IMG/VR virus record: IMGVR_UViG_3300039037_000119
Location: 1-52,443 of that record
Direction: 5' to 3' (one strand)
Source: a virus
Taxonomy: Duplodnaviria; Caudoviricetes
Length of the DNA stretch: 52,443 bases
The notes under the pieces are model-generated. The model saw only the letters and a list, made by a program, of their open reading frames with translations, was not told where the DNA came from and did no database searches. Made by a program: the position numbers and the translations under genes. Of this stretch, positions 6,097 through 28,525 are shown in pieces. Position 1 is the stretch's first letter. Each line of letters starts with the position of its first letter.

Positions 6097-6322
6097 TCTA
6101 TATAAGCTATACATGTATACAAAATATCGTTCATACTTTATAACTTATAAAGGTAAAAGAACCTACTGTCACCCCTCTATAAAAAAAGTTGTAACAATTA
6201 CCGGTTTTCCTGTAAAGGAAGAAGATAGGCCTTTTTTTGACCATACAGAACTTATCCTAGAATCCACTAAACCAATAACCTTAAATAATATAAAAAAGCA
6301 CTATCCAGAGCTACTTGTATGA
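6083..6322 (+). CDS. PE-tag small protein (HYPELLV*)
   Basis: C-terminal motif; ATGA-coupled to the next gene. Confidence 0.75.
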   Translation: MNSTNLYKLYMYTKYRSYFITYKGKRTYCHPSIKKVVTITGFPVKEEDRPFFDHTELILESTKPITLNNIKKHYPELLV

Positions 6323-6585
6323 AAACTATTATATTTTTACTATCTATACTATATACCTCTAGCTCTTATGCAGATTACCAAAATGAAGCATTAGAGCATG
6401 AATGCTTACACCAGCTATACCTAAAAAACGGTAAAGCTCCTTATAAAAAACTAGGGTCTAAATACACTGATTCTTATGGTATCGCTAAAGTAAGTTACGC
6501 AAACAAAACCTATAAATGCCATTTTAAAAAAGTAAGAAAACGTTACGAACTAAAGGAGGTGTTATATGGAATATCGGTTCTATAG
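6319..6585 (+). CDS. Putative secreted/periplasmic small protein
   Basis: MKTIIFLLSILYTSSSYA resembles a Sec signal peptide; two Cys in the mature part. Confidence 0.65.
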   Translation: MKTIIFLLSILYTSSSYADYQNEALEHECLHQLYLKNGKAPYKKLGSKYTDSYGIAKVSYANKTYKCHFKKVRKRYELKEVLYGISVL

Positions 6586-6784
6586 GTATGAAAATGCTAT
6601 AGCAGTACTAACATACCACAAAGTACGTTATACAATGTATAGGAGCTACCAAAAAGCACTAGATTCCTTTCTAGATTACTCTTGGGAGTACAGAGAAGTA
6701 GATTGTGTAACTGCTATAAATACTTGGAATCAAGAACCTTTACTGAAGATAACAGAAAAGTCTCATCCAGAATATTTTATCTAA
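6566..6784 (+). CDS. PE-tag small protein (HPEYFI*)
   Basis: C-terminal motif; AAGGAGG RBS. Confidence 0.8.
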   Translation: MEYRFYRYENAIAVLTYHKVRYTMYRSYQKALDSFLDYSWEYREVDCVTAINTWNQEPLLKITEKSHPEYFI

Positions 6785-6794
6785 GGGAATTAAT

Positions 6795-7226
6795 ATGAAA
6801 CATTTAAAAGTAGCAAAACTAAACCAACTAATTACAACAAACCAAAACGAATTTAGAGCCGGTTGCGTACTATCAGAAAAACGTCTATGTGAACTAGCAT
6901 CGCTAGATATCCCAAAAACTTATAAGTCTCCTAAAGAAGTGCAACAATTCGCTCTTAAGAAGATGAGTTTCTACGTAACTTTAAATAAGCTATTAGCTAA
7001 ACGTGGTTTATACATCACTGCTAAAGACTATTACACAGAGTTTAAGATTCTGCCTAAAACAAAAGTACAAGGTAAAGTAAAAAACCTAGACCACCGCTCT
7101 AAGAACTACACGACTTCTGCTCGTGTTTTGGCTCAAGGTGAGCGTCTATACCACTCTACCTGGAAACCTTTGACTCCGGATGAAGAAATGGAAGTATCCT
7201 CTAGAGTACAGCAAGTGACTTTATAA
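6795..7226 (+). CDS. Hypothetical basic protein
   Basis: Lys-rich ORF with core-gene-like codon usage. Confidence 0.8.
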   Translation: MKHLKVAKLNQLITTNQNEFRAGCVLSEKRLCELASLDIPKTYKSPKEVQQFALKKMSFYVTLNKLLAKRGLYITAKDYYTEFKILPKTKVQGKVKNLDHRSKNYTTSARVLAQGERLYHSTWKPLTPDEEMEVSSRVQQVTL

Positions 7227-7235
7227 GTATTTACC

Positions 7236-7577
7236 ATGTATATACTTATTAAATTAATGAACAGCCCTATATACAGTATTCCAGAAGGAACTTCTGATAA
7301 TGTTAGATATACTTATTACGGCTGGTCAAAAGATATAAAAACTGCAATAAACAATAAGTCTTTTACTACTATATCTTCTTTATACCTACTACATCCAAAA
7401 GAAGCAAAAGCATATATCGACCCAGGTCTTCCTACTACCGGAGAAGATTGTTATATACCACTAGAAAACTGGATAAAATTCTTAGAGATGGTAGATAAGA
7501 TTAAGGTAATTATAAAGCAAGAAACGCCTATCACATTAAGACAGATAGAAACGTACTACCCGGAGTTATTATTATGA
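7236..7577 (+). CDS. PE-tag small protein (YYPELLL*), paralog of 7574..7921
   Basis: Shares YGW and PITLxQIET with the neighbour. Confidence 0.8.
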   Translation: MYILIKLMNSPIYSIPEGTSDNVRYTYYGWSKDIKTAINNKSFTTISSLYLLHPKEAKAYIDPGLPTTGEDCYIPLENWIKFLEMVDKIKVIIKQETPITLRQIETYYPELLL

Positions 7578-7921
7578 CAGAAGATAATGTATATTTAATA
7601 TACGTAACTACTAACACTCCTGAACAAGAATACAACTATACTATGCTTAGCGGTAAGCTAGATAGTGAGAATATTATGTGGTATGGTTGGGCTTCTAAAA
7701 TACCTGTATTACTACGTCGTGTAGGCGAGCCAGAAACACTCGTCTATGCTGATATACCTGATAATAGGATTACTGAAAACATACCGCCAAACAAACCTAT
7801 CCACTTATCTCAATGGTTATCAGAACTCGAACACTCTAAAGAACTAAAGCTAGTAATAATACAAGAAGAACCTATAACTTTAACCCAAATAGAAACAGAT
7901 CATCCCGAACTATTAATATAG
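7574..7921 (+). CDS. PE-tag small protein (HPELLI*)
   Basis: C-terminal motif; paralog of the upstream gene. Confidence 0.8.
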   Translation: MTEDNVYLIYVTTNTPEQEYNYTMLSGKLDSENIMWYGWASKIPVLLRRVGEPETLVYADIPDNRITENIPPNKPIHLSQWLSELEHSKELKLVIIQEEPITLTQIETDHPELLI

Positions 7922-7929
7922 AGGTCATT

Positions 7930-9156
7930 ATGACAGACGAAAAATTTGGATTTGAAGAAGCTTTAGCTAACATGGCTACTGCATCTAGTTCCTATCACAA
8001 AGAGTATGTATTTTATGCTCACCTTATTTCACAGTGTCGTGTAACATACGATCCAAAACTAGGGGTGACTGAAGAGGACCCTGAAGGTACTCCATGTGAT
8101 GTAAACTTTATGCATGACCATTACAATCTATTCATTAACCCTACCCTATTTAATCAGATGCCTTTAACACATCGTATGGGTACTTTAAAACACAATATGT
8201 TACATATCCTATACGATCATGTAACTCGTTTAGAAGGACGTGATGTAAAGAAATTCCAAAAAGCTACAGATTGCGCTATTAACCAGCATATCAATGCAGA
8301 CCATCTACCTGATGATGCTGTCACGCCTGAAAACCTACTAGGTAATTATCCAGTCTCTGAAAACAAGACAGCAGAACAATACTTTGAGATGCTTCCTGAT
8401 GAAGACGATAATAATAATGATAATGATGATGATGGGGGTAGTGGTTCATCTACAGGTGATCACCAACAATGGGCTGAATCGCAAGGTGAAGAAGTAATCC
8501 AACAAGATCTTACAAAGAAAATGATGGAACAAGCTAATGCTGAAACCCAAAAAGTACAAGGCAATACTCCTTCTCAATATACTGATTGGCTAGATATCTT
8601 TAACAATGATAAACAAGTCAATTGGAAACAAGTATTACGTCGTATTGTAGGTAACCGTAGAGCTAACCAACGTAAAACATTACTGCGTAGAGATAGACGT
8701 TCCCCTCACTTCGAACATATCAAAGGTCGTACAAAAGACCGTACTTTTGATTTATTAGTAGTAGGGGACGAATCTGGTTCAGTATCTGATACAGAACTAG
8801 TGCAAGCTATTTCAGAAACAATACAGCTATGTAAAGTAATGAATACAAGCACTAGATATATCTCAGTAGATACTCAAGCTTACCCATCAGTAGAGTTAAA
8901 AGCTAATACCCGCTCTTTTGAACGTAATGCTCGTGGTGGTACATACATCTCAAAAGCCTTAAAACAAGCTTCTAAAGAACATCTATCTTATGATGCCTTA
9001 CTAGTCATTACAGATGGATATTTACATACGTCTGATGTAGAAGCCTTTGCTGAAGCTAATCGCCCTACTATCTTCTTAATTACCTCAGAAGGACAAATCA
9101 TGGACCAAATGCAAACAGGTCGTATGAGAGCTATCAAACTAGAGACAGGTGATTAG
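7930..9156 (+). CDS. Metallopeptidase-like (DUF2201-type) plus vWA domain protein, MoxR partner
   Basis: HNMLH at the HExxH position, ATDCAIN, acidic linker, MIDAS DESGS..GGT..ITDG. Confidence 0.85.
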   Translation: MTDEKFGFEEALANMATASSSYHKEYVFYAHLISQCRVTYDPKLGVTEEDPEGTPCDVNFMHDHYNLFINPTLFNQMPLTHRMGTLKHNMLHILYDHVTRLEGRDVKKFQKATDCAINQHINADHLPDDAVTPENLLGNYPVSENKTAEQYFEMLPDEDDNNNDNDDDGGSGSSTGDHQQWAESQGEEVIQQDLTKKMMEQANAETQKVQGNTPSQYTDWLDIFNNDKQVNWKQVLRRIVGNRRANQRKTLLRRDRRSPHFEHIKGRTKDRTFDLLVVGDESGSVSDTELVQAISETIQLCKVMNTSTRYISVDTQAYPSVELKANTRSFERNARGGTYISKALKQASKEHLSYDALLVITDGYLHTSDVEAFAEANRPTIFLITSEGQIMDQMQTGRMRAIKLETGD

Positions 9157-9157
9157 T

Positions 9158-9446
9158 ATGATAGTAGATATACATTTGACAAAGAGTGGAGAGCACTTAC
9201 ATTTACGTGTAGTAGCACAACCTCCTTATGACGGTCTAGCTAATAAAAATAACCCTTACCGACAATTACTAGATAGTAAAAAAAGGTATATATAAAAACT
9301 TAATAGAAAAATTAAAACCTCTAATACTAGAACAGGAAAGAGGTATCAAACATCCTTACGTACAATCCCTATTAGCAAAAAATAGCCTAGAAACACTTCA
9401 ACTATTTAAACAGGCTAGAAAAACAAATCCGGAATATTTTATATGA
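9158..9446 (+). pseudogene. PE-tag small protein interrupted by a +1 frameshift at an A7 tract
   Basis: ATG 9158 stops shortly after A7 (9278-9284); removing one A gives a 95-aa ORF ending KTNPEYFI*, ATGA-coupled to 9443. Confidence 0.8.
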
Positions 9447-9700
9447 AACTTATAACTAGGTTACACACTCCTGATGGTACGATCAATGAAAACCCATTAA
9501 CATTAGTAGACTTTACAGAGTTTTCTGAAGATATACAGGAAACTATAATAACTCTACTAACACCTGAAGACCAAAAAGCGGTAAGAGACGTATACAAACA
9601 AGAACGAGAGCTTATTACTTCAAGACAACAACTTATTGGAAACATTTACAGCAGAATAACAAACGAAATTAAGATTAAACACCCAGAACACTTTATCTAA
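9443..9700 (+). CDS. PE-tag small protein (HPEHFI*)
   Basis: C-terminal motif. Confidence 0.8.
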   Translation: MKLITRLHTPDGTINENPLTLVDFTEFSEDIQETIITLLTPEDQKAVRDVYKQERELITSRQQLIGNIYSRITNEIKIKHPEHFI

Positions 9701-9713
9701 TTGGAGAACATAT

Positions 9714-11003
9714 ATGAACATTAAACAAGTATTTAACTTAATTCAAGAAGCGGATGCGGTAGATCACGTACCTCTAATTGAATCATTACACGGTATTGGT
9801 AAATCAACAATTTGTGAAACCTACGCTCGTGAAAAAAACCTTCATTTTGAACCGTTAATCCTATCCTTAATGGATATTGGAGATCTTATCGGTATTCCTC
9901 GTACTACTCAAGTAGGCGGACAAACAACAACTGTATGGGCAGCGCCAGATTGGTATTCACGTATCGTAAACGCAGCTTGGCCTACAGAAATGCCTATTGA
10001 CCGTTTAAAGTTTGTAGACACAGGTTTATACGATCTAGTAAAAAATCTAGCTACAGAAATGATTAAACGTGAGAAACTAAACGAGCTATATTGCCAATTC
10101 TACAAGCTACCATCTGACGAACTACAATTACTCCGTCAAGAAAATGTAGTATACCTAGATGCAAAACGTTCTGTACTATTCCTAGATGAATTTAACCGTT
10201 CACCTAGTGATGTATTAAACGCCTCGTTACAGCTAATCCTAGAAAAACGTTTGCATACACATATCTTACCTAGAGTCGGTGGTAAAGATACATTCATCGT
10301 ATCAGCAATCAACCCTTCTGACGGTGATTATACAGTAGTAGACTTTGATCCAGCCTTATTAGACCGTTTTGTACAATGCAACCTAGATCCAGATACAAAT
10401 GCCTGGTTATCATGGGCTAACGACAACAACGTAAATGAAGTAGTACGTGACTACTTAACAGAGAACCCATCAAAACTACACTTTGTACCTAAAGATGGTA
10501 AGAAAGGCTCTTCACCACGTTCATGGACTAGATTAGCCTCATACCTAGACAGTATTAATAACAAACCTACTGAGACCACTTCATACTACTTAAAAGGTAT
10601 TATCGGTGAATCACTAGCAGCAGAATTCTTACTATTCTTACAAGGTTATGCTCGTTCTATGTCAGTAGAAGAGATTCAAGAAATTGTAGAGAAGAAAGCA
10701 AAACGTGTTAAAGACATCGAAAAACTAGGTGCTCATGTAGGTAAAGCTATCGACAAGGTAGAGGCTATTAAAAAAATGGAGTTAGCCCACAACCTGCAAA
10801 AGGCTTATACCGATGTAAAAGATGCTTCAGAAGCATTACCATACCTAGCTTACTTATACGGGTTGCCTCTAGAAAACTTAACAGCCTTCTTAACAAATCT
10901 AAAATCAGACAATCAAACTGCGTTCCAGCAACTAGTGGCTTTTGATGGAGAATTGAATAGTAAAGGTTTATTCCGAAAAATTGTAACTAAGGTAGCAAGC
11001 TAA
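9714..11003 (+). CDS. MoxR-like AAA+ ATPase
   Basis: Walker A SLHGIGKS, DLIGIP, Walker B LFLDEFNR, AINP, DPALLDRF, SPRSW; adjacent to the vWA gene. Confidence 0.9.
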   Translation: MNIKQVFNLIQEADAVDHVPLIESLHGIGKSTICETYAREKNLHFEPLILSLMDIGDLIGIPRTTQVGGQTTTVWAAPDWYSRIVNAAWPTEMPIDRLKFVDTGLYDLVKNLATEMIKREKLNELYCQFYKLPSDELQLLRQENVVYLDAKRSVLFLDEFNRSPSDVLNASLQLILEKRLHTHILPRVGGKDTFIVSAINPSDGDYTVVDFDPALLDRFVQCNLDPDTNAWLSWANDNNVNEVVRDYLTENPSKLHFVPKDGKKGSSPRSWTRLASYLDSINNKPTETTSYYLKGIIGESLAAEFLLFLQGYARSMSVEEIQEIVEKKAKRVKDIEKLGAHVGKAIDKVEAIKKMELAHNLQKAYTDVKDASEALPYLAYLYGLPLENLTAFLTNLKSDNQTAFQQLVAFDGELNSKGLFRKIVTKVAS

Positions 11004-11558: not shown

Positions 11559-12260
11559 ATGGCTCGTAAGAAACCGCATAACGCTAAACCCCTAGAAAAA
11601 GACAACCTAAAAGTCTCTGATGTCCAACCTTTTAATGACAGACAAGCAGACATTCTCCACACACTCCAAGCAACAGATAAACACATATCCCTACTAGGTT
11701 ATGCCGGGGTAGGTAAGTCCTATCTAGCTTTAGCAGGTGCATCTCTTCTCCTTGAACGAGGTGACTACAACAAAATAGTAATTATCCGCTCAGCAGTTCA
11801 AACTCGTGATATAGGGCATCTTCCTGGTTCGCTTGAGGAAAAAGGCCTAGTTTACGAACTTCCGTATAGAAAGATATTTTCAGACATTTTTAAACGTGAC
11901 GACGCTTATGACATACTTAAAAAGAAAGACATTGTACGCTTTATGCTTACTAGTTATGTTCGAGGTCTTACTATGGATAATGCAATTATCGTAGTAGAGG
12001 AAGCTCAAAATTTTACAGCTCATGAACTAGCTAGTGTAATCACTCGTGCAGGACAGAATAGTCGTATTATAATCACAGGAGACATCCTACAACGAGACTT
12101 AACACGAGAGAAAGAGAAAGATGTGGAAAAAGTATTTAAAGTCCTGGAAGAGCTACCACAGTTCGCTAGATTTGACTTTGAAGCAGATGACATAGTACGA
12201 TCCGGTCTAGTTAAAGACTTCATTATCAAATCAACTGAAATGTACCCTGAAGGGTTATAG
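11559..12260 (+). CDS. phoH: PhoH-family ATPase
   Basis: GYAGVGKS, IGHLPGSLEEK, RGLT, IVVEEAQN, TRAG, GDxxQ, DIVRSGLV. Confidence 0.95.
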   Translation: MARKKPHNAKPLEKDNLKVSDVQPFNDRQADILHTLQATDKHISLLGYAGVGKSYLALAGASLLLERGDYNKIVIIRSAVQTRDIGHLPGSLEEKGLVYELPYRKIFSDIFKRDDAYDILKKKDIVRFMLTSYVRGLTMDNAIIVVEEAQNFTAHELASVITRAGQNSRIIITGDILQRDLTREKEKDVEKVFKVLEELPQFARFDFEADDIVRSGLVKDFIIKSTEMYPEGL

Positions 12261-12286: not shown

Positions 12287-12526
12287 ATGGCAGCTCCTTA
12301 CTTACTTACAACCTTCATATACCCTAACGAAACTTGTCTTTACCGAGTGGTAGATCACACTAATCCAAAAAATCCTATATTCTACCCAAGTCATAAAACT
12401 ATCTCAGGAGCTATCCGTAACTTTAAAACAAAACCTCCTATCCCTTTTCCTAAACCGTACACTATAGCTCTACCTTTCTATACTATAGAATCCCTACAAG
12501 AAGGGTATCCGGAGTTCTTTATATGA
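12287..12526 (+). CDS. PE-tag small protein (YPEFFI*)
   Basis: C-terminal motif; AAGGAG RBS. Confidence 0.8.
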   Translation: MAAPYLLTTFIYPNETCLYRVVDHTNPKNPIFYPSHKTISGAIRNFKTKPPIPFPKPYTIALPFYTIESLQEGYPEFFI

Positions 12527-12563
12527 ATATACTAACTACAATCACCCCGAATTTTTTATCTAG
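12523..12563 (+). pseudogene. Remnant of a PE-tag gene (start and tagged end only)
   Basis: Coupled ATG at 12523, then out-of-frame CAC CCC GAA TTT TTT ATC TAG (HPEFFI*) at 12543-12563. Confidence 0.7.
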
Positions 12564-12571
12564 GAACTATT

Positions 12572-13483
12572 ATGAACCAAATTAAAGCAACAATCATCTC
12601 AGACTCTATCACTCCTGCAGGTAAACGTATTACCTCATTTGAACTGGAGTATCCAAGATTCATCCACGCAGAGCTTATGACCCATCGTCAGTTTAGTCGT
12701 AATGCAGCTAGTTCTCGTGCTATCCCGGTATCTACTACTTCTGCTCAAATTAAAGCTAACCCCGCTGTACCTTTTTATTTTGGTTCTAATCAAAAAGGTA
12801 TGCAAGCAGGTGCAGAGCTTACAGGTAAACGCTTAGACCTAACCCAATCAATCTGGAAAGAAGCTGCTACTTCAGCTGCAGAGTATGCATCTATCCTATC
12901 AGACCTAGGTCTCCACAAACAACACGCTAACAGGGTATCGGAAGTATTCCAAACTTACAAAGTAGTACTAACAACCACAGAAATCGCAAACTTCTTACAC
13001 TTACGTGATCATCCCGATGCTCAACCTGAAATACGTCTCCTAGCTTCATATATGAATACTGCTATGGAAGCGTCTACCCCTAAGCATTTAAACCCAGGTG
13101 AATGGCATTTACCTTACACCACTACAGTAAAAAGCACAGAAGGCAAAGTAACATATCTAGATGCTGACGGCACTGTACTAACAGAGGAAGAAGCCATCAA
13201 AGTATCTGCTAGTTGCTGTGCTCAAGTTAGCTATCGTGTACTAGACCATTCCTTACCTAAAGCATTAGCTATCTATGACCAACTAGTATCTTCGGAACCT
13301 GTCCATGCTTCACCTTTCGAACATCAAGCTACTCCAATGAAAGTAGAAAACCACCTAGATTCTACCTTATTTGAATGGCAAGAAGGTGTAACACATGTAG
13401 ACAAGAACGGTTATTTTTGGTCAGGAAACTTCCAAGGTTGGATTCAAAATCGTCAATTAATCCCTAACCATGTAATTTCTTAA
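12572..13483 (+). CDS. thyX: Flavin-dependent thymidylate synthase
   Basis: AELMTHRQFSRNAASSRAIP (ThyX signature variant), KQHANR, LRDHPDAQPEIR, HASPFEHQA. Confidence 0.92.
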   Translation: MNQIKATIISDSITPAGKRITSFELEYPRFIHAELMTHRQFSRNAASSRAIPVSTTSAQIKANPAVPFYFGSNQKGMQAGAELTGKRLDLTQSIWKEAATSAAEYASILSDLGLHKQHANRVSEVFQTYKVVLTTTEIANFLHLRDHPDAQPEIRLLASYMNTAMEASTPKHLNPGEWHLPYTTTVKSTEGKVTYLDADGTVLTEEEAIKVSASCCAQVSYRVLDHSLPKALAIYDQLVSSEPVHASPFEHQATPMKVENHLDSTLFEWQEGVTHVDKNGYFWSGNFQGWIQNRQLIPNHVIS

Positions 13484-13492: not shown

Positions 13493-13702
13493 ATGTATTT
13501 CGATAATCTTAATATTCACCAAACGGTAGACACAGAATGTAAAGGATTATTTGATTATTATACAGATATGACTGCAAAAGCTTTTGAAGACGCTATATAC
13601 AAGCAATCCCTGGAAAAGGTTCTAGAAAAAGAATTTAAGGGACTTACCTTAAAACAAGTACAAAAAGCTGCTAAAGAGTTATACCCAGAAAAATTTATAT
13701 AG
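13493..13702 (+). CDS. PE-tag small protein (YPEKFI*)
   Basis: C-terminal motif; AAGGA RBS. Confidence 0.8.
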   Translation: MYFDNLNIHQTVDTECKGLFDYYTDMTAKAFEDAIYKQSLEKVLEKEFKGLTLKQVQKAAKELYPEKFI

Positions 13703-13710
13703 AGACCATT

Positions 13711-14031
13711 ATGCGAGTAAATATCTACCTAGTAGGAACATCTATCGGTTGTGCTTTAGAGATAGAAGTAGCAAGATATACAGGATGGAGTCACATACAA
13801 CTAACAGATGACAAAAGCTCTAGACGTAAAGATTTATGCTTTTTACTCACTGACCCGTTGTTAGATTTGTCTTCCTCCCCAGACCGGATGTACCAAGACA
13901 AGCTAGATGAAGAAGACTACACCAACGTAAGATTACTAGAATCCTTTACTGTACAAGAGAAAGACCTAGAAACCAGACTAGTTTATTGGATGTCTGTCGT
14001 AGAAGAAAAATACCCGGAGTACTTTATATGA
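13711..14031 (+). CDS. PE-tag small protein (YPEYFI*), paralog of 14345..14677
   Basis: Shares MRxxIYLV, EVAxY, LCxxLTDP, YxNVxLxxSFTVxExDLETxLxYW. Confidence 0.85.
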   Translation: MRVNIYLVGTSIGCALEIEVARYTGWSHIQLTDDKSSRRKDLCFLLTDPLLDLSSSPDRMYQDKLDEEDYTNVRLLESFTVQEKDLETRLVYWMSVVEEKYPEYFI

Positions 14032-14336: not shown

Positions 14337-14344
14337 GAAAATGT

Positions 14345-14916: not shown

Positions 14917-14929
14917 TAACGAGAATACT

Positions 14930-18888: not shown

Positions 18889-18899
18889 AGGAGTTACTT

Positions 18900-19286: not shown

Positions 19287-19295
19287 GAGCTACAA

Positions 19296-20026: not shown

Positions 20027-20051
20027 ACAATCAACAAAAAAAGGAACCACT

Positions 20052-21415: not shown

Positions 21416-22570
21416 ATGGCTAAGCATAAAATATCCGCTAAAGCTTTCGTAAAACTTTGCGAAACCTCTAACATGAATGTTGGAGAAATCCAAAAAAGGA
21501 TAAAACGAAAGTATCCCGGCTATTGTGCTAGACCTAGCCGTATCTTAAAACGAATAGAGAACTACCGTCGTAAAGGACTCCTACCCCTAGATTCAGGCAA
21601 CTACGTAAGTACTGGCGAAATCTTAACAGGTACGACTACCCTGTATGACGAAGATGGTTCAATAAAACACCAATATGTAAAAACATCAGTACCAAAAGAG
21701 AACCTCCTCTACGCAATGGAGGAAGCAATCGCATCTATGGTTACAGAATACGTCACCCCGGCAGATCCTGTAGGCGGTCCAACCACCCCCTTAAACGAGG
21801 AGTTGGCTACTGTCTATATCTCAAACGATCTACACCTAGGTTTACGCAATGCTGGAAACGAAGTAGAAAAAGATTGGAATCTTGACAGTGCTGTACAGAC
21901 TACGTACAAAGCATACGACTACCTAATGGATTGCTCACCAAAAGCATCCGTAGGTATAGTAGTAGACTTAGGTGACTTAACAGAGAACAATGACGGTTCT
22001 AACATGACACCTAAATCAAAGCATGTACTAGATGTAGATGGACGTTTCCACCAAGTTCTTAAAGCAGCTTACGAAACCTTAATATATGGTATCAAATCAG
22101 CTTTAGAACGGCATGAAACAGTTTATTTCTACTCCATACCTGGTAATCACGATCCATCAGTTAATCTCTCTATCAATGCTATCATAGAAGCCTATTTCAA
22201 AGATGAACCTCGTGTCATCGTTGATTCTGAACCTCGCTCAATCAAATATCATCAACACGGCAAAACCCTCCTTCAATTTGCTCACGGTGATATGATGAAA
22301 ATGCAGCATACAGGGGAAGTAATGGCACATGATTGTCTAGATATATTTAGCGAAACATTACATCGTTATTCTCATCTAGGTCACATTCATTCTATGAAAG
22401 CTATGGATACACGGCTATGTTCAGCTGAAAGCCATCGTAATCTACCACCACTAAATGCCTGGGCCTATAGCATGGGTTTTAGAGGACCGTTAGGTACGAT
22501 GAAGTCTATTACTTACTCCTCACAAGATGGCGAGCTTTCTCGTCAAACATTTAACGTAAACATGAAATAG
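21416..22570 (+). CDS. Calcineurin-like metallophosphoesterase with basic N-terminal domain
   Basis: NDLHLG, DLGD, PGNHD, AHGD, GHIH. Confidence 0.88.
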   Translation: MAKHKISAKAFVKLCETSNMNVGEIQKRIKRKYPGYCARPSRILKRIENYRRKGLLPLDSGNYVSTGEILTGTTTLYDEDGSIKHQYVKTSVPKENLLYAMEEAIASMVTEYVTPADPVGGPTTPLNEELATVYISNDLHLGLRNAGNEVEKDWNLDSAVQTTYKAYDYLMDCSPKASVGIVVDLGDLTENNDGSNMTPKSKHVLDVDGRFHQVLKAAYETLIYGIKSALERHETVYFYSIPGNHDPSVNLSINAIIEAYFKDEPRVIVDSEPRSIKYHQHGKTLLQFAHGDMMKMQHTGEVMAHDCLDIFSETLHRYSHLGHIHSMKAMDTRLCSAESHRNLPPLNAWAYSMGFRGPLGTMKSITYSSQDGELSRQTFNVNMK

Positions 22571-22580
22571 TAAGTATATA

Positions 22581-22602
22581 GAGCCCTCTTAGGAGGGTTT
22601 TA
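22581..22602 (+). terminator. Putative intrinsic terminator
   Basis: GAGCCCTC-TTAG-GAGGGTTT followed by a T-rich tail. Confidence 0.6.
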
Positions 22603-22624
22603 TTATACTTATTAAAGGCATCTT

Positions 22625-22909
22625 ATGAAAATTACCTTACCCCTATCTACTAATAATGATCCTCAGTATATGTACTATCTTCGAGATAACAACATGGGTT
22701 ACTACCTACGAAAAAATAATGATACATGGCACAACCGAATACCTCGTTACTCTATAGATAACTATATAGAAGAACTTCACGATCAGCTGCCTGAAAGATG
22801 GTGGGAACCTAAGTACTCACGGTGGATTGATGCTAATGTCGTAAAGGTTTTCGGTACCCATGAAGAAGTACTTAAATGGGAACAGGAACATCCAGGATAT
22901 TTTATTTAG
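22625..22909 (+). CDS. PE-tag variant small protein (HPGYFI*)
   Basis: C-terminal motif with E>G. Confidence 0.75.
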   Translation: MKITLPLSTNNDPQYMYYLRDNNMGYYLRKNNDTWHNRIPRYSIDNYIEELHDQLPERWWEPKYSRWIDANVVKVFGTHEEVLKWEQEHPGYFI

Positions 22910-22918: not shown

Positions 22919-23113
22919 ATGGAAATATGCAACGAATCTCACCCAGAAATCGTATACACAAGCTTTTGTTGTCCGTTATGTGAATCATTAGAAAAGTACG
23001 ACGAACTATCCTCAGAGCTTGAAGAAACTCAATACAACTATGAAACAACTTTAGACACTTACGCAGAGCTACGCCAAAAAGTAAATAAAGTTAATCCGGA
23101 ACTCCTATTATAA
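22919..23113 (+). CDS. PE-tag small protein with Cys-rich N-terminus and coiled coil (NPELLL*)
   Basis: C..H..CCPLC, then heptads; C-terminal motif. Confidence 0.8.
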   Translation: MEICNESHPEIVYTSFCCPLCESLEKYDELSSELEETQYNYETTLDTYAELRQKVNKVNPELLL

Positions 23114-24585
23114 TGAACCTTACCTCACACCAACAAGACGTAGTAAATTACGTAACAAGTAACGATGACCTAGTCCTAGTAGAAGCTGTAGCTGGAGCAG
23201 GTAAAACAACCCTACTTACAGCTATTGCAGACGCAGTACCTCATAAGAATAGTGCTTACCTAGCCTACAACAAATCTATAGCCGTAAACTCAAAAAAGAA
23301 GTTCCCTTCTACGACGCACTGCATGACGACCCATTCTATGGCTTACCAAGCTATCGTGATCCCAAACAAACTTAAAGTAGGTTTCTTTAACTACAAATCT
23401 ATCAAAGAGCGCATTCCTTACCTAGATAAATGTACAGTCATCGATCTAATGAAAGAGTTCTGTCTATCTAGGTACGTAACTTACGAAGAGTTCGTAGAAG
23501 CTCAAGAAGAGGACATTAGTAAGTACACAAAACATGTAGTCAAATACCTAGATCTGATGGACAATGGTAAAATCGAAGTATCTCATGAATTCTACTTAAA
23601 AAGATTCCATCTAGCCCTAGCTCATGATGAAATAGAGTACGAACCATTTGACTTTTTAATGTTAGACGAAGCTGGAGATTTAAATGAAGTCACTTTAGAA
23701 ATCTTCCTATTACTACCATCAAAAAAGAAAATTGCTGTAGGAGATCCTCACCAAAACATCTACTCGTTTAATCATACAATTAACTGTTTTGACGTACTAG
23801 AAGGTAAAGGTAAAAAATTCAATCTACCACAATCTTTCCGTGTACCTAGTAATATCGCTCCTAAAATCGAATGCTTCTGTAATACCTACCTAGATCCACA
23901 TATGGATTTTGAAGGTACCTTCACCTCAGACAAAACAATCGAATCTGAAGGCTACATCACTCGTACTAACGGAGCTTTAATCGGTAAGATGGTAACATTA
24001 AATGCTCAGGGAACCTCTTACGGATTAACACGTAAAGCATCAGAAATCTTCAAATTACCTTTAATGTTAGCAAGTATGAAGTACCAAGGTTTTGTACCAG
24101 ATCCTTCATATCAACATATCCAAACAGACTTTAACACTTGGACAGAGAAACCTGATCTTAAAATGGCTCATAAAAGTCCATTTAGTTACATCGCATCATT
24201 ATACGATGATGACATCCAGTTAGTAAATGCGTGTAAGCTCTTAAACCGCTACGGTAAAGGTACTATCTACGATACTTACAAAGAAGCTAAAAACCATGAA
24301 GGTAAAAAGCATCCTCTAACCCTAGCCACAGCCCACTCCAGTAAAGGCCTTGAATTCGACAAAGTTACTATTGGTGACGATCTGAACATGTCTATAGCAG
24401 ATGTAGTAAACTACGTATCCTCTACTGACAACCCTATCATCACCTCAGAGCAACGTGAGTCTCTAAACCTATACTACGTAGCTTGTACAAGAGCCTTAAA
24501 ACATATTGAGAATGCTACTCACTTAAAACAAACAGCAAAATGTGCAATGAAACGTAAACTAATCTGTCCAGAAGAGTTCATATGA
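23113..24585 (+). CDS. Superfamily 1 (UvrD-like) DNA helicase, ending in the PE-tag (CPEEFI*)
   Basis: AVAGAGKTT, LAYNK, TTHS, LDEAGD, VGDPHQNIYSF, LPQSFR, TAHSSKGLEFD, YYVACTRA. Confidence 0.93.
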   Translation: MNLTSHQQDVVNYVTSNDDLVLVEAVAGAGKTTLLTAIADAVPHKNSAYLAYNKSIAVNSKKKFPSTTHCMTTHSMAYQAIVIPNKLKVGFFNYKSIKERIPYLDKCTVIDLMKEFCLSRYVTYEEFVEAQEEDISKYTKHVVKYLDLMDNGKIEVSHEFYLKRFHLALAHDEIEYEPFDFLMLDEAGDLNEVTLEIFLLLPSKKKIAVGDPHQNIYSFNHTINCFDVLEGKGKKFNLPQSFRVPSNIAPKIECFCNTYLDPHMDFEGTFTSDKTIESEGYITRTNGALIGKMVTLNAQGTSYGLTRKASEIFKLPLMLASMKYQGFVPDPSYQHIQTDFNTWTEKPDLKMAHKSPFSYIASLYDDDIQLVNACKLLNRYGKGTIYDTYKEAKNHEGKKHPLTLATAHSSKGLEFDKVTIGDDLNMSIADVVNYVSSTDNPIITSEQRESLNLYYVACTRALKHIENATHLKQTAKCAMKRKLICPEEFI

Positions 24586-24884
24586 TATATATAATAGAAC
24601 TAAAAGGTTTAGAAGATCCGCTCCCTAAATTTTTTGAAGCTGTAGATATTGCTAGCTACAAAGCTTTCGATACAAATATAAATAAAATATCGTACTGGGA
24701 AGATTCTGTAGAAGAAGCACTAAAATATTTAGAAGATACGACCTCTAGATTTTTTCAAGAAGATATAAAAGAGGTACTTGCTGACGTAGAGTATAAGCCT
24801 AAAAATTATAAAATTTATGATATAGACTCTAATTATTTCTCTATATCAGACATAAAGTATAAATATCCTGAGCTATTCTTATGA
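24582..24884 (+). CDS. PE-tag small protein (YPELFL*)
   Basis: C-terminal motif; ATGA overlaps at both ends. Confidence 0.8.
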   Translation: MIYIIELKGLEDPLPKFFEAVDIASYKAFDTNINKISYWEDSVEEALKYLEDTTSRFFQEDIKEVLADVEYKPKNYKIYDIDSNYFSISDIKYKYPELFL

Positions 24885-25534
24885 TACAATCAACTATTAA
24901 AGTTACACACAAATCTACATCTAATGCCTTTATAGCAAAGCAATGGCTAGATTCTTTACCAGACTTATTTGCCGCAGATTTCGAGACTGCTGTACGCTAT
25001 AGACCAGAAGAACAAACAGCTTATCTAGAGCAATCAAAAGACCTTACACTCCCTATTCAGCAAAGAGCAGAGCTAATCTCAAAAGGAGAGGCTACAGCAC
25101 TAGATCACCCAAGCCACTGTACGATTACCCATTTTTCGGCAGCTTGGTCAGATCACGAAGGATTTGTAATAGTAATGGATAATGATGCAGTAGCTCGTGT
25201 GGTACTACGTTTCTTAGTAACCACTAAAAAAACACAAATATGGCACAACCTAAGTTACGATGCTAAGCACATAATGTACCATACAGGACAATTTCCACTG
25301 GTTTACGAAGATACACAAATCCTATCTAAAACTCTACTAAACCATGTAGATGTGCATAAAGCCTCTACAGGTCTAAAAGAACTAGCAGGCCACAAATACG
25401 GAGAATGGGCTGTAAGCTCAGATTACTTCACATTAGATAATATCCACAACCCCAAACTAATTAAGTATGCTGCCATAGATGCTTGTGCTACTTACTGGTT
25501 ATGGAACGAAATACAATCTCAAATAGAGGGATAG
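24881..25534 (+). CDS. Stand-alone 3'-5' exonuclease (proofreading domain of a family A DNA polymerase)
   Basis: ExoI ADFET, ExoII HNLSYD, EDTQI..GLKELA, ExoIII YAAID. Confidence 0.88.
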   Translation: MIQSTIKVTHKSTSNAFIAKQWLDSLPDLFAADFETAVRYRPEEQTAYLEQSKDLTLPIQQRAELISKGEATALDHPSHCTITHFSAAWSDHEGFVIVMDNDAVARVVLRFLVTTKKTQIWHNLSYDAKHIMYHTGQFPLVYEDTQILSKTLLNHVDVHKASTGLKELAGHKYGEWAVSSDYFTLDNIHNPKLIKYAAIDACATYWLWNEIQSQIEG

Positions 25535-25536
25535 AA

Positions 25537-26007
25537 ATGACAATACAAGAAGCCTATGAAGCACAAACAAAACTCTATCTATTAGAGCCTAGTGATATAA
25601 CATCTACAGGAAAACTGACAGGTGTATCTCTAAGAGCTTACGAGATAGTACTAGATGAACAAAAGTCTAAATACAGCAGTTACATGGACTATACTCCTAA
25701 ACCTACAGGCAAACTGTTTACCTTCAAAAACGGTAAAATAGTAGAGACTAAAACTTGTGCAAAGCTGAACAATAAACATATTAACCATACTATAGTTACT
25801 ACTCTAGGAGAATACACACCTAGCTGGTCTGCTTCCTGTTTTACTGATCCTGTTACAGCCATTGCTGCAAAACAGATGCTTCAAAAGGACCTAATCAACG
25901 GGTACAGAAGAGCAGCAGAAAAAACATTAGCTAGATTAGACGCACTAGATAAAGCCATTCCTTCTATTAGCAATATTGTAGAAGAAAATCCAGAATTGTT
26001 CCTGTAA
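25537..26007 (+). CDS. PE-tag protein (NPELFL*)
   Basis: Start revised to ATG 25537; C-terminal motif. Confidence 0.8.
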   Translation: MTIQEAYEAQTKLYLLEPSDITSTGKLTGVSLRAYEIVLDEQKSKYSSYMDYTPKPTGKLFTFKNGKIVETKTCAKLNNKHINHTIVTTLGEYTPSWSASCFTDPVTAIAAKQMLQKDLINGYRRAAEKTLARLDALDKAIPSISNIVEENPELFL

Positions 26008-26189
26008 TGAACCAATATAACTTTGAAAGAACTATAGCAAGGCTAAAAGCAGACATACTATACCTAAAGAAAGTGTGTATTATGCAAAAAAGCTATAACT
26101 TAGACGTTATAAATACACAAGCTTTATTAGAAGATAAAAAACGTACCTTACAAACTCTCAAAGAAACCTATCCGGAATATTTAATATGA
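26007..26189 (+). CDS. PE-tag small coiled-coil protein (YPEYLI*)
   Basis: TAATG and ATGA overlaps; C-terminal motif. Confidence 0.75.
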   Translation: MNQYNFERTIARLKADILYLKKVCIMQKSYNLDVINTQALLEDKKRTLQTLKETYPEYLI

Positions 26190-28006
26190 CTTACTCCCCA
26201 CACGATCTATTACCGGCTCCAGAACCTAAGTATACAGATTACGGACCTACCTACTTCTATGACAATGTAGCCAAATACTTAATAAAAGATACTGTACGTA
26301 TCATGCATAACGGACTTCATGTTGACCTAGATAAAGTAGAGCAGTTACAGGTAACTTTAGACAACCAGCTAGAAAGTGTAAGCAACCGATTAGCGAGTAA
26401 TCCACATATTAAAGGGTACTTAGATATACGTCATTCAGTACTAATAGTAAAATACCAAGAAGAACGTAAAACAAGACTACGAGACGCATCTTACTATCTA
26501 AAACCATTTAAACCTGGTGATATGACACATCGTAGCTACTTTATGCATATCTACGCTACAAAGTATGGTAAAACAGAGCCTACGGGGCTATTACCGACAG
26601 GTATTCCAAAATGGCCTGCTAATCTAGTGAAGAAGTTATCTAAAACAAAGCCAATGCTCAAAAAACTATTAGCTAAAGAGATTACAGACTCTCACCCTAT
26701 AGCTAAAGAAGCAATGGAGTTACTAGCAACCCATAAAGCAGAGCTACACAACCGTAAATACCTAGATCAGATAGCTTCTCCAGATATCGAGTTACCTCCT
26801 TTTAACCCAAACTCGTCAGAACAGAAAAGAGAACTATTCGAGTCTTTAGGGGTCCAGTCAGACGTGGTATCTAAAACAACAGGACTACCTAGTTATGGGA
26901 GGGATGTCATTGAAGGTATCGGAAAAATGACAGCAGACCCTGACGTCAAAGCTTTAGTAGATGCTTTAATCGACCAATCCTATGCCGCTATAGTAAGAAA
27001 CAACTTCATCAACGCTTTCTATCGCTACACTGTAGATGATCGTCTTTACGGTCAATACAAACTCCTAGGGGCCAAATCAGCAAGATATACCAGTAGTAAT
27101 CCTAACATGCTCAACATGCCTTCTACAGGCTCCATCTTTGCTAAACCTATAAAAAAATGTTTCACAGCTCCTCCAGGGTCCCTCATATGTGCTATCGACT
27201 ACGCAGCTTTAGAAGACCGTGTAGTAGCCAACTTATCTAGGGACAGCAACAAACTAGGTTTATTCTTAGAAGGCCTAGACGGTCACTCCCTATCTGCTAC
27301 CTACTATTACCCTGCTAGGGTTAAGGACATTATAGGTCCTTTTACAGATAACAAAGAGGCCTCTAAACTTCTAAAGGCTATCGTAGACGACAAGGATCAC
27401 CCTAAACATAAAGATGCTGTATCTGTCCGTCAAGACAGTAAACCCATCTCTTTCGGCTTAGCTTATGGCGCTTTCCCTCCAAAGGTTGCTGCTACTGTAA
27501 AGATCCCCCTAGACGAAGCTGAGCTCATATTCAACGCATACCACAATGATCTATTCCCTGGTATCACAGAATTCCGAGAAAGCTACGTACTCCCTACAGC
27601 CATAGAGAACGGACGCATTCACCTAGGGTTAGGTTTCTACATCTACACGGATGACCCTGACAGAGACATCAGGACGATCAACAACGCTTGCTCTCAGTTC
27701 TGGTCCATCCTAACAGCCTTAACGATAAACCGTTTACATGCCTTAATTGATGAAGCAGGGCTACAAGATGATATCAAAGTAACCTCAACCATTTATGACT
27801 CCATATATTTTGAAGTAACCGATGACCCAGAAATTATCAAATGGCTTAATGACCACATCATTCCAGTCATGACAACTGACTTTATGGAAAACCAACTTGT
27901 TCATAATGATGCAGACCTAGAAATAGGTAAGGACTGGGCTAACTTAGAGGTCCTGCCTCACAACGCTTCCATCGAAGAAATACAAACCATAAGGAACTCC
28001 CTATGA
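26186..28006 (+). CDS. Family A DNA polymerase, polymerase domain
   Basis: FNPNSSEQ, ARYTSSNPNMLNMP, motif A IDYAALEDR, motif B RQDSKPISFGLAYG (Phe at the E. coli 762-equivalent position), motif C TIYDSIYF. Confidence 0.95.
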   Translation: MTYSPHDLLPAPEPKYTDYGPTYFYDNVAKYLIKDTVRIMHNGLHVDLDKVEQLQVTLDNQLESVSNRLASNPHIKGYLDIRHSVLIVKYQEERKTRLRDASYYLKPFKPGDMTHRSYFMHIYATKYGKTEPTGLLPTGIPKWPANLVKKLSKTKPMLKKLLAKEITDSHPIAKEAMELLATHKAELHNRKYLDQIASPDIELPPFNPNSSEQKRELFESLGVQSDVVSKTTGLPSYGRDVIEGIGKMTADPDVKALVDALIDQSYAAIVRNNFINAFYRYTVDDRLYGQYKLLGAKSARYTSSNPNMLNMPSTGSIFAKPIKKCFTAPPGSLICAIDYAALEDRVVANLSRDSNKLGLFLEGLDGHSLSATYYYPARVKDIIGPFTDNKEASKLLKAIVDDKDHPKHKDAVSVRQDSKPISFGLAYGAFPPKVAATVKIPLDEAELIFNAYHNDLFPGITEFRESYVLPTAIENGRIHLGLGFYIYTDDPDRDIRTINNACSQFWSILTALTINRLHALIDEAGLQDDIKVTSTIYDSIYFEVTDDPEIIKWLNDHIIPVMTTDFMENQLVHNDADLEIGKDWANLEVLPHNASIEEIQTIRNSL

Positions 28007-28245
28007 AAGATGCACTCGGAATCCCGCTAAAAGTAGGGGACACAGTATACTTAGCGCATTCACATACTAATACCAACTTTTCAGGTTTGACAAAAGTTCT
28101 AAAACTTACCTCCAAAAGAGTAACTGTATGGGATCCCTACTTCCCTGATACTCCTAGTAAGCTTAGTGTACAACCAGAACGTCTACTAAAAGTGTCTGAC
28201 CAGATCAAAGCCAACCAAGTTAACTACCCCGAACTCTACCTATAA
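28003..28245 (+). CDS. PE-tag small protein with KOW/SH3-like fold (YPELYL*)
   Basis: DALGIPLKVGDTVY..KVLKLTSKRVTV; C-terminal motif. Confidence 0.8.
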   Translation: MKDALGIPLKVGDTVYLAHSHTNTNFSGLTKVLKLTSKRVTVWDPYFPDTPSKLSVQPERLLKVSDQIKANQVNYPELYL

Positions 28246-28255
28246 GGAACCTAAT

Positions 28256-28525
28256 ATGGCCCATTTCTACGCCTCCATTCAAGGTAACCGTGGCGAAGCT
28301 ACTCGTTGTGGTTCTAAAACCTCTGGCCTTACCTCCACTGTCTCAGGGTGGGACATCGGAGTAGAGGTCACCTTAGAGTACGACGCTAACCTAGGTACCG
28401 ACATAGTTCATATCTATGCTACTGAAGGATCTAACGGATGCTCTCGAAAACGTATCCTATCCTACATCCAAAAGGAAGGTAGACGGGTTATCCTAGACAC
28501 AGAACATCCAGAGGTCTTGCTATGA
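28256..28525 (+). CDS. PE-tag small protein (HPEVLL*)
   Basis: MAHFYASIQGNRGEATRCG start; AAGGA RBS; C-terminal motif. Confidence 0.85.
   Translation: MAHFYASIQGNRGEATRCGSKTSGLTSTVSGWDIGVEVTLEYDANLGTDIVHIYATEGSNGCSRKRILSYIQKEGRRVILDTEHPEVLL

Follow-up and report, generated by a model that had tools for sequence, protein, structure and literature searches.

Why do copies of one short peptide, repeated at the ends of many genes of a single phage, switch between synonymous codons? The stretch of DNA that raises this question (52,443 nucleotides, referred to as the window) covers half of the genome of a marine, N4-like phage. Of the early and replication-module genes in it, about 26, many of them small, share the C-terminal peptide [YHN]-P-E-x-[FLY]-[LIV], here called the PE tag. 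The window scan identified 26 open reading frames with a C-terminal P-E-x-[FLY]-[LIV] on the + strand, where all tags and control junctions described below are located, and one or two matches on the - strand. The stop codon is TGA in 13 of these strict tags, and TAA or TAG in the other 13. Each of the 13 TGA codons overlaps the next start codon as ATGA; when two relatives are included, all 21 TGA-ending tags overlap it as ATGA or GTGA. The original prediction held that the tag-coding DNA of such coupled copies doubles as the ribosome-binding site of the downstream gene.

The PE tag is a signal at the level of the peptide. The proline of its Pro-Glu pair is invariant in 61/61 aligned tags, and the last two residues are F/L/Y followed by I/L/V in the same 61/61. 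According to BLASTP, most tagged proteins are alike in the tag alone and otherwise have no mutual similarity. None of the ten tagged proteins tested against Pfam scored above a curated gathering score, and ESM Atlas provided no usable match for tagged proteins. In an AlphaFold model, the tag is a coil following a helix and is the lowest-confidence part of the chain. We found no published description of the tag. As a short, exposed, hydrophobic-acidic C-terminus shared by different proteins, it may be likened to the C-terminal tails of T4 gp33, gp55, and gp43, which bind the gp45 clamp, and to the hub-binding C-terminal tail of bacterial SSB. However, the tag has about 25 carriers per genome, and [YH]-P-E matches none of the motifs of those tails. 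The β-clamp-binding motif QL[SD]LF, which is usually C-terminal, has Gln at its first position, four residues before Phe/Leu; it was rejected as an identity for the tag, which has Pro at the required Gln position in 61/61 copies. The last three residues of the tag are hydrophobic, similar to the non-polar C-termini of ssrA-type degradation tags, but the tag also contains the invariant Pro-Glu, a pair that degrons are not known to have. Among the phage genes is one for a Clp-family protease (33164-33733; PF00574, E=4.7e-13). This Clp-like gene does not follow the number of tags per genome: relatives with almost no tags have it too.

The codon of the tag glutamate follows the type of junction. 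GAG is used in 10/13 ATGA tags and in 0/13 tags ending in TAA or TAG (Fisher p=1.1e-4, window), which reproduces the counts originally reported for the TGA copies. The accompanying claim that none of 15 TAA/TAG tags contains GAG is true for the 13 strict tags together with two degenerate ones, HPGYFI (22909) and YPEGL (12260). The three exceptions among the ATGA tags read CCG GAA (ends 9446 and 26189) or GAA GAG (helicase, end 24585). CCG, a rare codon that makes up about 6% of Pro codons, is confined to coupled copies as originally noted, namely to six ATGA tags and the TAATG copy at 23113, and occurs in no other tag of the window. For comparison, GAG constitutes 26% (153/593) of Glu codons in the window and 26-31% across the genomes compared, and internal Pro-Glu dipeptides use GAG in 42/154 cases (27%) and CCG in 9/154. 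Counted from the A of the ATG, the GAG codon occupies positions -11 to -9; the resulting 8-nt spacer confirms the original estimate. In coupled tags, GGAG or GAG is found at -12 to -9, still within the preceding open reading frame and in the range of about 5-13 nt before the start that is required of an intragenic SD.

The coupled tags of the window differ in their predicted pairing with the anti-SD 9-mer, for which we used the standard bacterial sequence; it may not match the 16S 3' end of the host. The two copies in which GAG is extended to GAGG are YPEVLL (CCA GAG GTA; 17462-17482, ATGA start of gene 17479-17763), with -7.1 kcal/mol, and HPEVLL (CCA GAG GTC; 28505-28525, gene 28522-28863), with -6.5 kcal/mol. 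CCG GAG is present in YPELLL (7557-7577, gene 7574-7921; -6.1 kcal/mol), YPEFFI (12506-12526; -6.1), YPEYFI (14011-14031, gene 14028-14336; -6.1), and YPELFI (17743-17763, PD-(D/E)XK nuclease gene 17760-18587; -5.8). The ATGA of YPEFFI at 12523-12526 opens just a 20-codon open reading frame (12523-12585) and no real gene. Four copies have just GAG following CCA or CCT, with about -2 kcal/mol: YPELLV (CCA; 6302-6322, gene 6319-6585; -2.1), YPELFL (CCT; 14657-14677, gene 14674-14916; -2.2), YPEYLL (CCA; 19623-19643, gene 19640-20026; -2.4), and a second YPELFL (CCT; 24864-24884, 3'-5' exonuclease gene 24881-25534; -1.9). CCG GAA occurs in NPEYFI, which provides GGA only (9426-9446, gene 9443-9700; -3.5) and whose open reading frame has no ATG, GTG, or TTG start, and in YPEYLI (26169-26189, DNA polymerase gene 26186-28006; -3.5). 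CPEEFI (CCA GAA GAG; 24565-24585, gene 24582-24884; -2.4) belongs to a C-terminal extension of the helicase; the helicases of relatives end at ...NATHL and lack this tag-bearing extension. Three of the ATGA junctions thus feed the nuclease, exonuclease, and polymerase genes, in agreement with the original prediction.

In uncoupled tags, it is the stop codon that bears the SD (TAAGGA, TAGGAG), and the Glu codon in the window is GAA throughout. The Pro codon is CCA in HPEYFI (6764-6797; TAA-GGG SD, ATG 6795), HPEHFI (9680-9716; TAA then TTGGAG, ATG 9714), YPEKFI (13682-13713; TAG-AGA, ATG 13711), YPELFL (14896-14932; TAA, primase gene ATG 14930), and YPEIFI (20006-20054; TAA, a 25-nt spacer with AAGGAA, ATG 20052). 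It is CCC in HPELLI (7901-7932; TAG-AGG SD, ATG 7930), NPELYL (14316-14347; TAG-GAA SD, ATG 14345), NPELFL (19266-19298; TAG-GAG SD, ATG 19296), and YPELYL (28225-28258; TAA-GGA SD, ATG 28256), and CCT in HPEYFI (18868-18902; TAA-AGGAG SD, ATG 18900). A ghost tag, HPEFFI (CCC GAA; 12543-12574), provides the TAG-GAA SD of thyX (ATG 12572); its 24-codon open frame (tag at 12543-12563) has no gene body. Two tags form -1 overlaps (TAATG), in which the Glu codon would be 11 nt from the start, and both use GAA: NPELLL (23093-23115, overlapping the helicase gene), with CCG GAA 12 nt from the ATG, and NPELFL (CCA; 25987-26009), without an SD-like run. Such overlaps account for 2/23 tag junctions vs 13/30 untagged pairs (p=0.006).

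Pro-Glu is kept invariant in the 43/64 tags of the window and two relatives that have no SD-like codons. The wobble positions of these 43 uncoupled tags vary freely (Pro CCC 15, CCA 14, CCT 11; Phe TTT 14, TTC 13; Ile ATC 11, ATT 10). Because uncoupled copies keep the peptide without the SD codons, the ribosome-binding site cannot explain the peptide, as had been argued from the window.

The association persists in related genomes. In two relatives with polymerase identity of about 60%, GAG is found in 5/5 ATGA tags vs 0/12 others and in 3/3 vs 0/18, respectively, which combine to 8/8 coupled vs 0/30 uncoupled tags. Pooled with the window, the counts are 18/21 vs 0/43 for GAG (p=3.7e-13), 12/21 vs 2/43 for CCG (p=5.7e-6), and 6/21 vs 1/43 for a G-starting codon after the Glu (p=0.004). 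Eleven further loci have GAG in 14/17 coupled vs 5/14 uncoupled tags (p=0.012), and the rule recurs among genomes with only 51-60% polymerase identity. The three ATGA tags with GAA in more distant relatives represent a single orthologous junction preceding the helicase, which in AD45-P1 is without any SD-like run. Homologues switch between junction types through synonymous changes: within two homologous groups of mixed coupling state, the codon differs accordingly. The paralogue (end 7921) of the tagged gene ending at 7577 is uncoupled and has GAA, as do the homologues of the 19623-19643 copy in two relatives.

Under the assumed standard bacterial anti-SD, the mean predicted duplex of the 21 coupled tags is -5.1 kcal/mol, compared with -0.27 kcal/mol after recoding to CCA GAA and -0.22 kcal/mol for the equivalent nucleotides of uncoupled tags. 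Pairing of -2 kcal/mol or stronger is reached by 20/21 coupled vs 2/43 uncoupled tags, and in 11/21 coupled tags none of the eight possible codon pairs would pair more strongly than the one present. The 30 untagged overlapping junctions, whose genes were called by a crude ORF finder, so that some of the open reading frames may be spurious, have a mean of -5.0 kcal/mol, with 23/30 at or below -4 kcal/mol; 12.8% of 670 internal 15-mers reach this value. Untagged overlaps of the same genomes embed the SD via Lys-Glu, Lys-Asp, or AGG-Arg codons. The polymerase gene ends with ATA AGG AAC TCC CTA TGA (27986-28006), where TAAGGA, formed via an AGG Arg codon, precedes an ATGA start at 28003 (-6.2 kcal/mol). 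The end of the Clp-like protease gene, AAA GGA GAC ATG TAA TG (33716-33735), contains AAGGAG (-8.7 kcal/mol) in a -1 overlap with a start at 33733. The equally strong SDs at untagged overlaps indicate that the effect extends beyond the tag. The notion of a dual-use gene end stands for ATGA copies, whose Pro-Glu codons provide an SD-like GGAG or GAG suitably spaced from the start, and falls as a property of the tag.

Codon use at E. coli gene ends has been described before: Eyre-Walker (J Mol Evol, 1996) reportedly observed that gene proximity affects stop and synonymous codon use, with 3'-end codons said to be shaped by the ribosome-binding site of the next gene as a genome-wide statistical tendency. 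In the phage, the switch is nearly deterministic and concerns one codon of one motif. According to Huber et al. 2019 (PMC6728339), the SD of overlapping pairs lies in the 3' end of the upstream gene for the majority of pairs in most prokaryote groups, and SD removal strongly reduced re-initiation in 4/5 E. coli pairs. As in the overlaps treated in that study, the phage junctions have a -4 stop/start overlap and an SD-complementary run among the final codons of the preceding open reading frame, whatever the upstream protein. Unlike those overlaps, about 20 phage junctions per clade, known from sequence alone, have one conserved peptide, so that the effect is purely synonymous (GAG vs GAA, CCG vs CCH), and uncoupled copies of the identical peptide allow a direct comparison. 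Given this published norm and the equal SDs of untagged overlaps, the codon switch very probably reflects ordinary selection for an intragenic SD that would serve initiation or re-initiation at -4 overlaps. The tag is a very clean case of a known rule, and the mechanism is not new; the switch is unusually visible because the amino acids of the tag are held constant.

The tag has two stereotyped junctions, on which we propose that selection acts as follows. In the overlapped junction, CCG GAG nnn nnn nnA TGA, the next ATG overlaps the stop and leaves room for an SD inside the tag alone; G-ending synonyms of Pro and Glu would therefore be fixed, placing GGAG or GAG at -12 to -9, and a G-starting next codon (GAGG) would sometimes also be favoured. 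In the separated junction, CCH GAA ... TAA GGA n5-7 ATG, the SD begins with the stop codon (UAAGGA, UAGGAG), and SD-like codons are absent from the tag. SD-like tag codons would raise downstream translation.

The tag could instead have evolved, or been retained, as a plug-in gene end, with Pro-Glu as a ready ribosome-binding site easing insertion between essential genes while their coupling stays unbroken, as was originally inferred. This reading draws on the lineage-specificity of the small tagged genes, of which 4/23 have any tblastn match in six relatives, compared with 16/17 larger genes (at least 140 aa, 6795-33733). The -4 overlap is also commoner at tagged than at untagged ends (18/57 vs 7/111, with the untagged ends likewise taken from the crude ORF calls), and homologues toggle between junction types by synonymous change. 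The ghost tag and the helicase extension show gene turnover with the junctions left intact. We nevertheless consider it unlikely, since tags without SD-like codons retain Pro-Glu and untagged overlaps match the SD strength without a tag. Moreover, at 8 nt from the ATG the tag SD is less well spaced than the ordinary SDs of separated genes in these genomes, which lie 2-3 nt closer (5-7 nt), and core enzymes lie downstream of only 3/13 ATGA junctions.

Common descent, in which CCG GAG..ATGA and CCH GAA..TAA GGA lineages spread by duplication or recombination with their codons hitch-hiking, would account for the tandem paralogue pairs 14031/14677 and 17482/17763, which are all ATGA/GAG, as tandem duplication of an ATG...ATGA unit recreates the junction. 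It is made highly improbable by the scrambled remaining wobble positions within each class, the dissimilarity of most tagged proteins, the recurrence of the rule in distant genomes, and the codon differences between homologues of different coupling. SD need alone does not predict that all 43 uncoupled tags of the window and the two relatives lack GAG (p ~1e-6 against background); this lack, below the 27% background, would fit selection for accurate decoding by GAA at an invariant Glu, with GAG acting via the weak UGA stop. The pattern breaks down in further relatives, whose uncoupled tags use GAG at about background (5/14). A role in termination or decoding also leaves unexplained the joint rise of rare CCG and G-starting next codons with GAG, the AAGGA embedded in untagged overlaps by other amino acids, and the lack of GAG in -1 overlaps, where spacing is wrong; we regard it as the least credible of all. 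Selection for an intragenic SD remains our preferred explanation, although the wider spacing of the tag SD, the weak pairing of the four copies with GAG following CCA or CCT, and the GAA-bearing ATGA junction of the more distant relatives count against it.

The phage offers a natural experiment on synonymous-site selection: dozens of same-peptide copies differ in junction type alone, and the Glu codon tracks the junction almost without exception, and the pressure even affects the residues themselves, by way of a G-starting codon following the Glu. The native junction pairs are ready for measuring what a bare GAG or GGAG, 8 nt from the start, adds to re-initiation. For annotation, a tag that ends in TGA points to an overlapping start, and behind a TAA or TAG that runs into GGA a start can be expected 8-10 nt downstream. 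The codon result itself shows only that the tag is selected as a peptide. The genes marked by the tag are lineage-specific accessory genes situated between conserved replication genes. We tentatively speculate, as a possibility with the odds against it, that the PE tag is a phage-wide C-terminal address joining about 25 otherwise dissimilar accessory proteins per genome, fast in turnover, to one hub, of host or phage, or to a protease, while its Pro-Glu serves as a ribosome-binding site switchable by synonymous change. If so, accessory genes could shift between coupled and autonomous expression with the protein unchanged.

The PE tag, the C-terminal peptide [YHN]-P-E-x-[FLY]-[LIV] of many small genes in the window, is encoded by different codons at different gene junctions. 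Each stop codon of the window was checked for a preceding P-E-x-x-x, which identified 26 open reading frame (ORF) ends on the + strand and one or two on the − strand. As the original prediction stated, all 13 tags ending in TGA overlap the next ATG (ATGA, hereafter coupled tags), and ten of these 13 encode the tag Glu as GAG. The other three read CCG GAA (ends at 9446 and 26189) or GAA GAG (helicase end, 24585). The predicted absence of GAG from 15 tags ending in TAA or TAG holds for all 13 strict copies, which use GAA, but a count of 15 requires two degenerate tags, HPGYFI (22909) and YPEGL (12260), both without GAG. The Pro codon CCG is confined to six ATGA copies and the copy at 23113, whose stop overlaps the next start by one nucleotide (TAATG). 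The GAG codon occupies positions −11 to −9, leaving 8 nt between GAG and ATG. GAG use depends on coupling status (Fisher test, p = 1.1 × 10⁻⁴); for comparison, GAG makes up 26% of all the window's Glu codons (153/593) and 27% (42/154) of those in internal Pro-Glu dipeptides of three genomes, of which 9/154 carry CCG. Degenerate tags are located at 761–781 (HPQLFI, Gln replacing Glu), beyond the range of the original prediction, at 12243–12260 on PhoH (YPEGL), and at 22889–22909 (HPGYFI, Gly replacing Glu).

Two tag-rich relatives, G1 (47 kb) and G2 (83 kb), whose polymerases are each approximately 60% identical to that of the window, were analyzed whole. Strict tags were defined as PE.[FLY][LIV] ending an open frame with 20 codons or more, which leaves out the near-tags YPEFLN and YPEYSL in G2 and HPQLFI, HPGYFI, and YPEGL in the window. 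Among the 17 strict tags of G1, GAG is present in 5/5 ATGA or GTGA copies and 0/12 others; the corresponding numbers for the 21 strict tags of G2 are 3/3 and 0/18. When the three genomes are pooled, GAG is used in 18/21 coupled tags and 0/43 others (p = 3.7 × 10⁻¹³), and CCG in 12/21 and 2/43 (p = 5.7 × 10⁻⁶). A codon starting with G follows the Glu, producing GAGG or GGAGG, in 6/21 coupled tags and 1/43 others (p = 0.004). A scan of 32 more loci (ORFs of at least 50 codons, exact duplicates dropped) yielded 31 tags in 11 loci, with GAG in 14/17 tags at −4 overlaps and 5/14 others (p = 0.012); one pair among the 14 is 99% identical, which leaves 13/16 independent cases. All three exceptions come from a single orthologous junction, located upstream of the helicase gene in phages resembling Alteromonas phage AD45-P1, with CCG GAA in two and CCC GAA in one. 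The link between codon and junction is robust, having been recounted in the window and replicated in relatives.

The codon pattern could reflect a recent shared origin of the tag DNA. Few BLASTP similarities are detected among the tagged proteins after removal of their last eight residues. Three homologous groups contain both junction types, and in two of them the codon tracks the junction: the homologues ending at 7577 (ATGA, GAG) and 7921 (TAG, GAA), and the gene ending at 19643 (ATGA, GAG) with its homologues in G1 and G2 (TAA, GAA). The third, helicase-upstream group breaks the rule. The Pro wobble position in uncoupled tags is varied (CCC 15, CCA 14, CCT 11), as are those of Phe (TTT 14, TTC 13) and Ile (ATC 11, ATT 10). 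Because wobble positions other than those following the junction are scrambled within each class, recent common descent fails to explain the codon pattern. The wobble variation also shows that selection acts on the tag as a peptide. Comparison of strains over 20 kb in four runs revealed 47 differences; none of the 40 that are listed falls inside a tag, numbers too small for a test.

According to the original prediction, tag-coding DNA is a dual-use gene end that provides both the peptide and the Shine-Dalgarno (SD) sequence of the next gene. Duplex energies were computed for positions −18 to −4 against the standard anti-SD 9-mer, which was assumed for the host and may differ from the host's own. 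The mean predicted energy of the 21 coupled tags is −5.1 kcal/mol; recoding in silico changes it to −0.27 kcal/mol with CCA GAA and to −7.1 kcal/mol with the best synonymous pair. Of the 21 coupled tags, 11 already have the optimal one of the eight Pro-Glu codon pairs. For the 43 uncoupled copies, the corresponding tag nucleotides yield −0.22 kcal/mol. The control set of 30 untagged overlapping junctions (−4 or −1, both strands, three genomes, crude ORF calls) has a mean of −5.0 kcal/mol, and 23/30 reach −4 kcal/mol or lower, compared to 12.8% of 670 internal 15-mers (p = 5 × 10⁻¹⁰). In untagged overlaps, the SD is supplied by Lys-Glu or Lys-Asp (AAG GA.) or by the rare Arg codon AGG, as in the polymerase end ATA AGG AAC TCC CTA TGA. 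Such AGG codons at 27992–27994 (polymerase end) and 34410–34412 (gene ending at 34418) build TAAGGA or AAAGGAG for the start of the next gene. The embedded-SD effect is not special to the tag: the dual-use reading holds in the ATGA subset, as a case of the known intragenic-SD rule that untagged overlaps follow equally. A study of overlapping gene pairs locates an SD inside the upstream gene, at its 3′ end, in at least about half of the pairs in most prokaryote groups, and describes a strong reduction of re-initiation upon SD removal in four of five E. coli pairs (PMC6728339); the SDs of untagged overlaps in these phages agree with the pairs described there. A 2025 review counts the SD among the factors affecting coupling (PMC12548453).

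In tags separated from the next gene, the SD adjoins or overlaps the stop codon in 27/41 cases (TAAGGA, TAAAGGA, TAGGAG, TAGAGG), with the start lying 7–11 nt from the stop codon and 5–7 nt from the GGA or GAG core. The choice of stop codon is therefore also set by the junction, and TGA terminates 21/21 overlapping tags and 0/43 others. In the −1 overlap, the Glu codon would sit 11 nt from the start, and both such tags use GAA. TAATG junctions are rarer in tags (2/23) than in untagged pairs (13/30, p = 0.006), which fits a spacing-dependent SD and none of the rival models considered. In the window, G1, and G2, none of the 43 uncoupled tags has GAG (p ~ 10⁻⁶ versus background), an indication that this codon is actively avoided or that the invariant residue has a preferred codon; in the further relatives GAG occurs in 5/14 uncoupled tags, approximately the background level. 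In the three genomes, CCC is more common in uncoupled tags (15/43) than in internal Pro-Glu dipeptides (17/154, p = 3 × 10⁻⁵). Neither the CCC excess nor the GAG absence is explained by a need for an SD. A model in which the Pro codon of uncoupled junctions forms a hairpin with the SD downstream was rejected, as minimum free energies are only −0.2 to −5.6 kcal/mol, pairing is inconsistent, and CCC copies behave the same as others.

Across 61 aligned tails, Pro and Glu never vary, 54 of the tails have Y, H, or N at position −6, and hydrophobic residues recur at positions −10 and −13. An exhaustive HMMER search with the 80-residue protein encoded by 28003–28245 identified 15 proteins at E ≤ 10⁻³. 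Nine were inspected: all eight full-length small ones, including the window's own, end with [YH]-P-E-x-x-[LI], and the ninth is incomplete. The six long matches are similar to the barrel only. The AlphaFold model of the 28003–28245 protein (8-row alignment, mean pLDDT 82) is composed of a small β-barrel and a helix at residues 64–74, and its final six residues form a coil in the lowest-confidence block (mean 65), which is weakly consistent with the tag being an exposed tail. In a Foldseek comparison of the model to the PDB, the only structures to appear were generic KOW/SH3-like barrels, all with E > 0.001. None of ten tagged proteins scored above the Pfam cut-off, and the ESM Atlas contained no usable match for a tagged protein. 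A word-indexed homologue search with gene 19296–19640 returned only itself, and viral contigs contained no relatives of query proteins P0003 and P0016. We found no description of the motif in the literature on C-terminal motifs shared by phage early genes, phage Clp and degrons, or tag letters, supplements aside.

The 52,443-bp IMG/VR virus record has an estimated completeness of approximately 50%. Its DNA polymerase is 54–55% identical to those of N4-like Alteromonas phages vB_AmaP_AD45-P1 to P4, and 51–60% identical to those on several contigs from uncultured viruses and metagenomes. A short metagenome contig, L039, matches it in part, at 75% identity. Sequencing runs containing the window DNA are labeled hydrothermal vent metagenome or metagenome, and none is recorded as RNA. 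Megablast of 15 kb of the window against a phage collection gave no matches. The + strand block, reaching to about 34.9 kb, encodes a DUF2201_N/VWA protein and an AAA_5 ATPase, PhoH, an N4 gp43-like primase, a PD-(D/E)XK nuclease, an AAA_24 (Sak4-like) ATPase, an SSB homologue, helicase, 3′-5′ exonuclease, DNA polymerase, ribonucleotide reductase, and a Clp-family protease. Judged by its sequence, ORF 12572–13483 is a putative thyX. The Clp-family protease (33164–33733; PF00574, E = 4.7 × 10⁻¹³, with a weaker NfeD1b_N match) lies in this early/middle + strand block and is kept in 6/6 relatives compared, tag-rich and tag-poor alike. A terminator-like hairpin of 11 pairs followed by a T run is located at 22578–22603 on the + strand, 3′ of gene 21416–22570. 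Since it is the sole strong one on this strand within 5.5–25.4 kb, the tagged genes appear to lie in long operons. Gene 6319–6585, started by the first ATGA junction, has the signal-peptide-like N-terminus MKTIIFLLSILYTSSSYA and no tag.

With both strands scanned and a minimum ORF length of 50 codons, tags number 25 in the window (52 kb scanned), 17 in G1 (47 kb), 19 in G2 (83 kb), 13 in L046 (22 kb), 2 in AD45-P1 (100 kb), 1 in G4 (78 kb), and 0 in G5 (80 kb); core genes are common to all seven genomes. No window gene was a candidate receptor gene, present in tag-rich and absent from tag-poor genomes, although three of the genomes compared are incomplete. A receptor, if any, would thus belong to the phage core or to the host. 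In AD45-P1 (L002), an unannotated 56-codon ORF at 23139–23309, between the annotated rIIA-like and nuclease genes, has the C-terminus EEWPEYCL followed by TAA-GGA, and tagged ORFs ending with WPEYLL, WPEYAL, and YPEYSL are present in three relatives (L005, L006, L007). None of these ORFs aligned convincingly with the window's genes there.

Three tagged loci are unusual. The tagged ORF ending with KTNPEYFI at 9446 has no ATG, GTG, or TTG start, and prolongs a 45-codon ORF (9158–9295) in the +1 frame across an A7 run at 9278–9284. The run is probably not an assembly slip, because no indel is listed in the contigs that span it, which come from four runs of four studies; 9158–9446 could be a pseudogene or could be subject to frameshifting or transcriptional slippage. 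The ATGA start at 12523, which follows the tag at 12526, begins a frame of just 20 codons (12523–12585), and a second full tag, YNHPEFFI with TAG-GAA, lies 16 nt further on in another frame and supplies the SD for 12572–13483. The short frame looks like the ghost of a deleted tagged gene of which both junctions were kept. The window helicase has a 17-residue extension (24535–24585) ending with the tag-like CPEEFI and ATGA, whereas the helicases of G1 and G2 end at NATHL and that of AD45-P1 four residues past the matching NANHL. Fusion with an adjacent small gene may have brought this tag to the helicase.

Among the small tagged window genes, 4/23 have a tblastn match at 10⁻⁵ in six relatives; for window genes of at least 140 residues between 6795 and 33733 the proportion is 16/17. 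By crude gene calls, a −4 overlap is found at the end of 18/57 tagged and 7/111 untagged genes (p = 4 × 10⁻⁵). Tagged genes, having few matches and more often overlapping ends, are therefore variable accessory genes packed among conserved replication genes. We infer that the SD-like codons of coupled tags act on downstream translation; the further proposal of the original prediction, that the tag enables the insertion of genes without uncoupling their neighbors, is a hypothesis.
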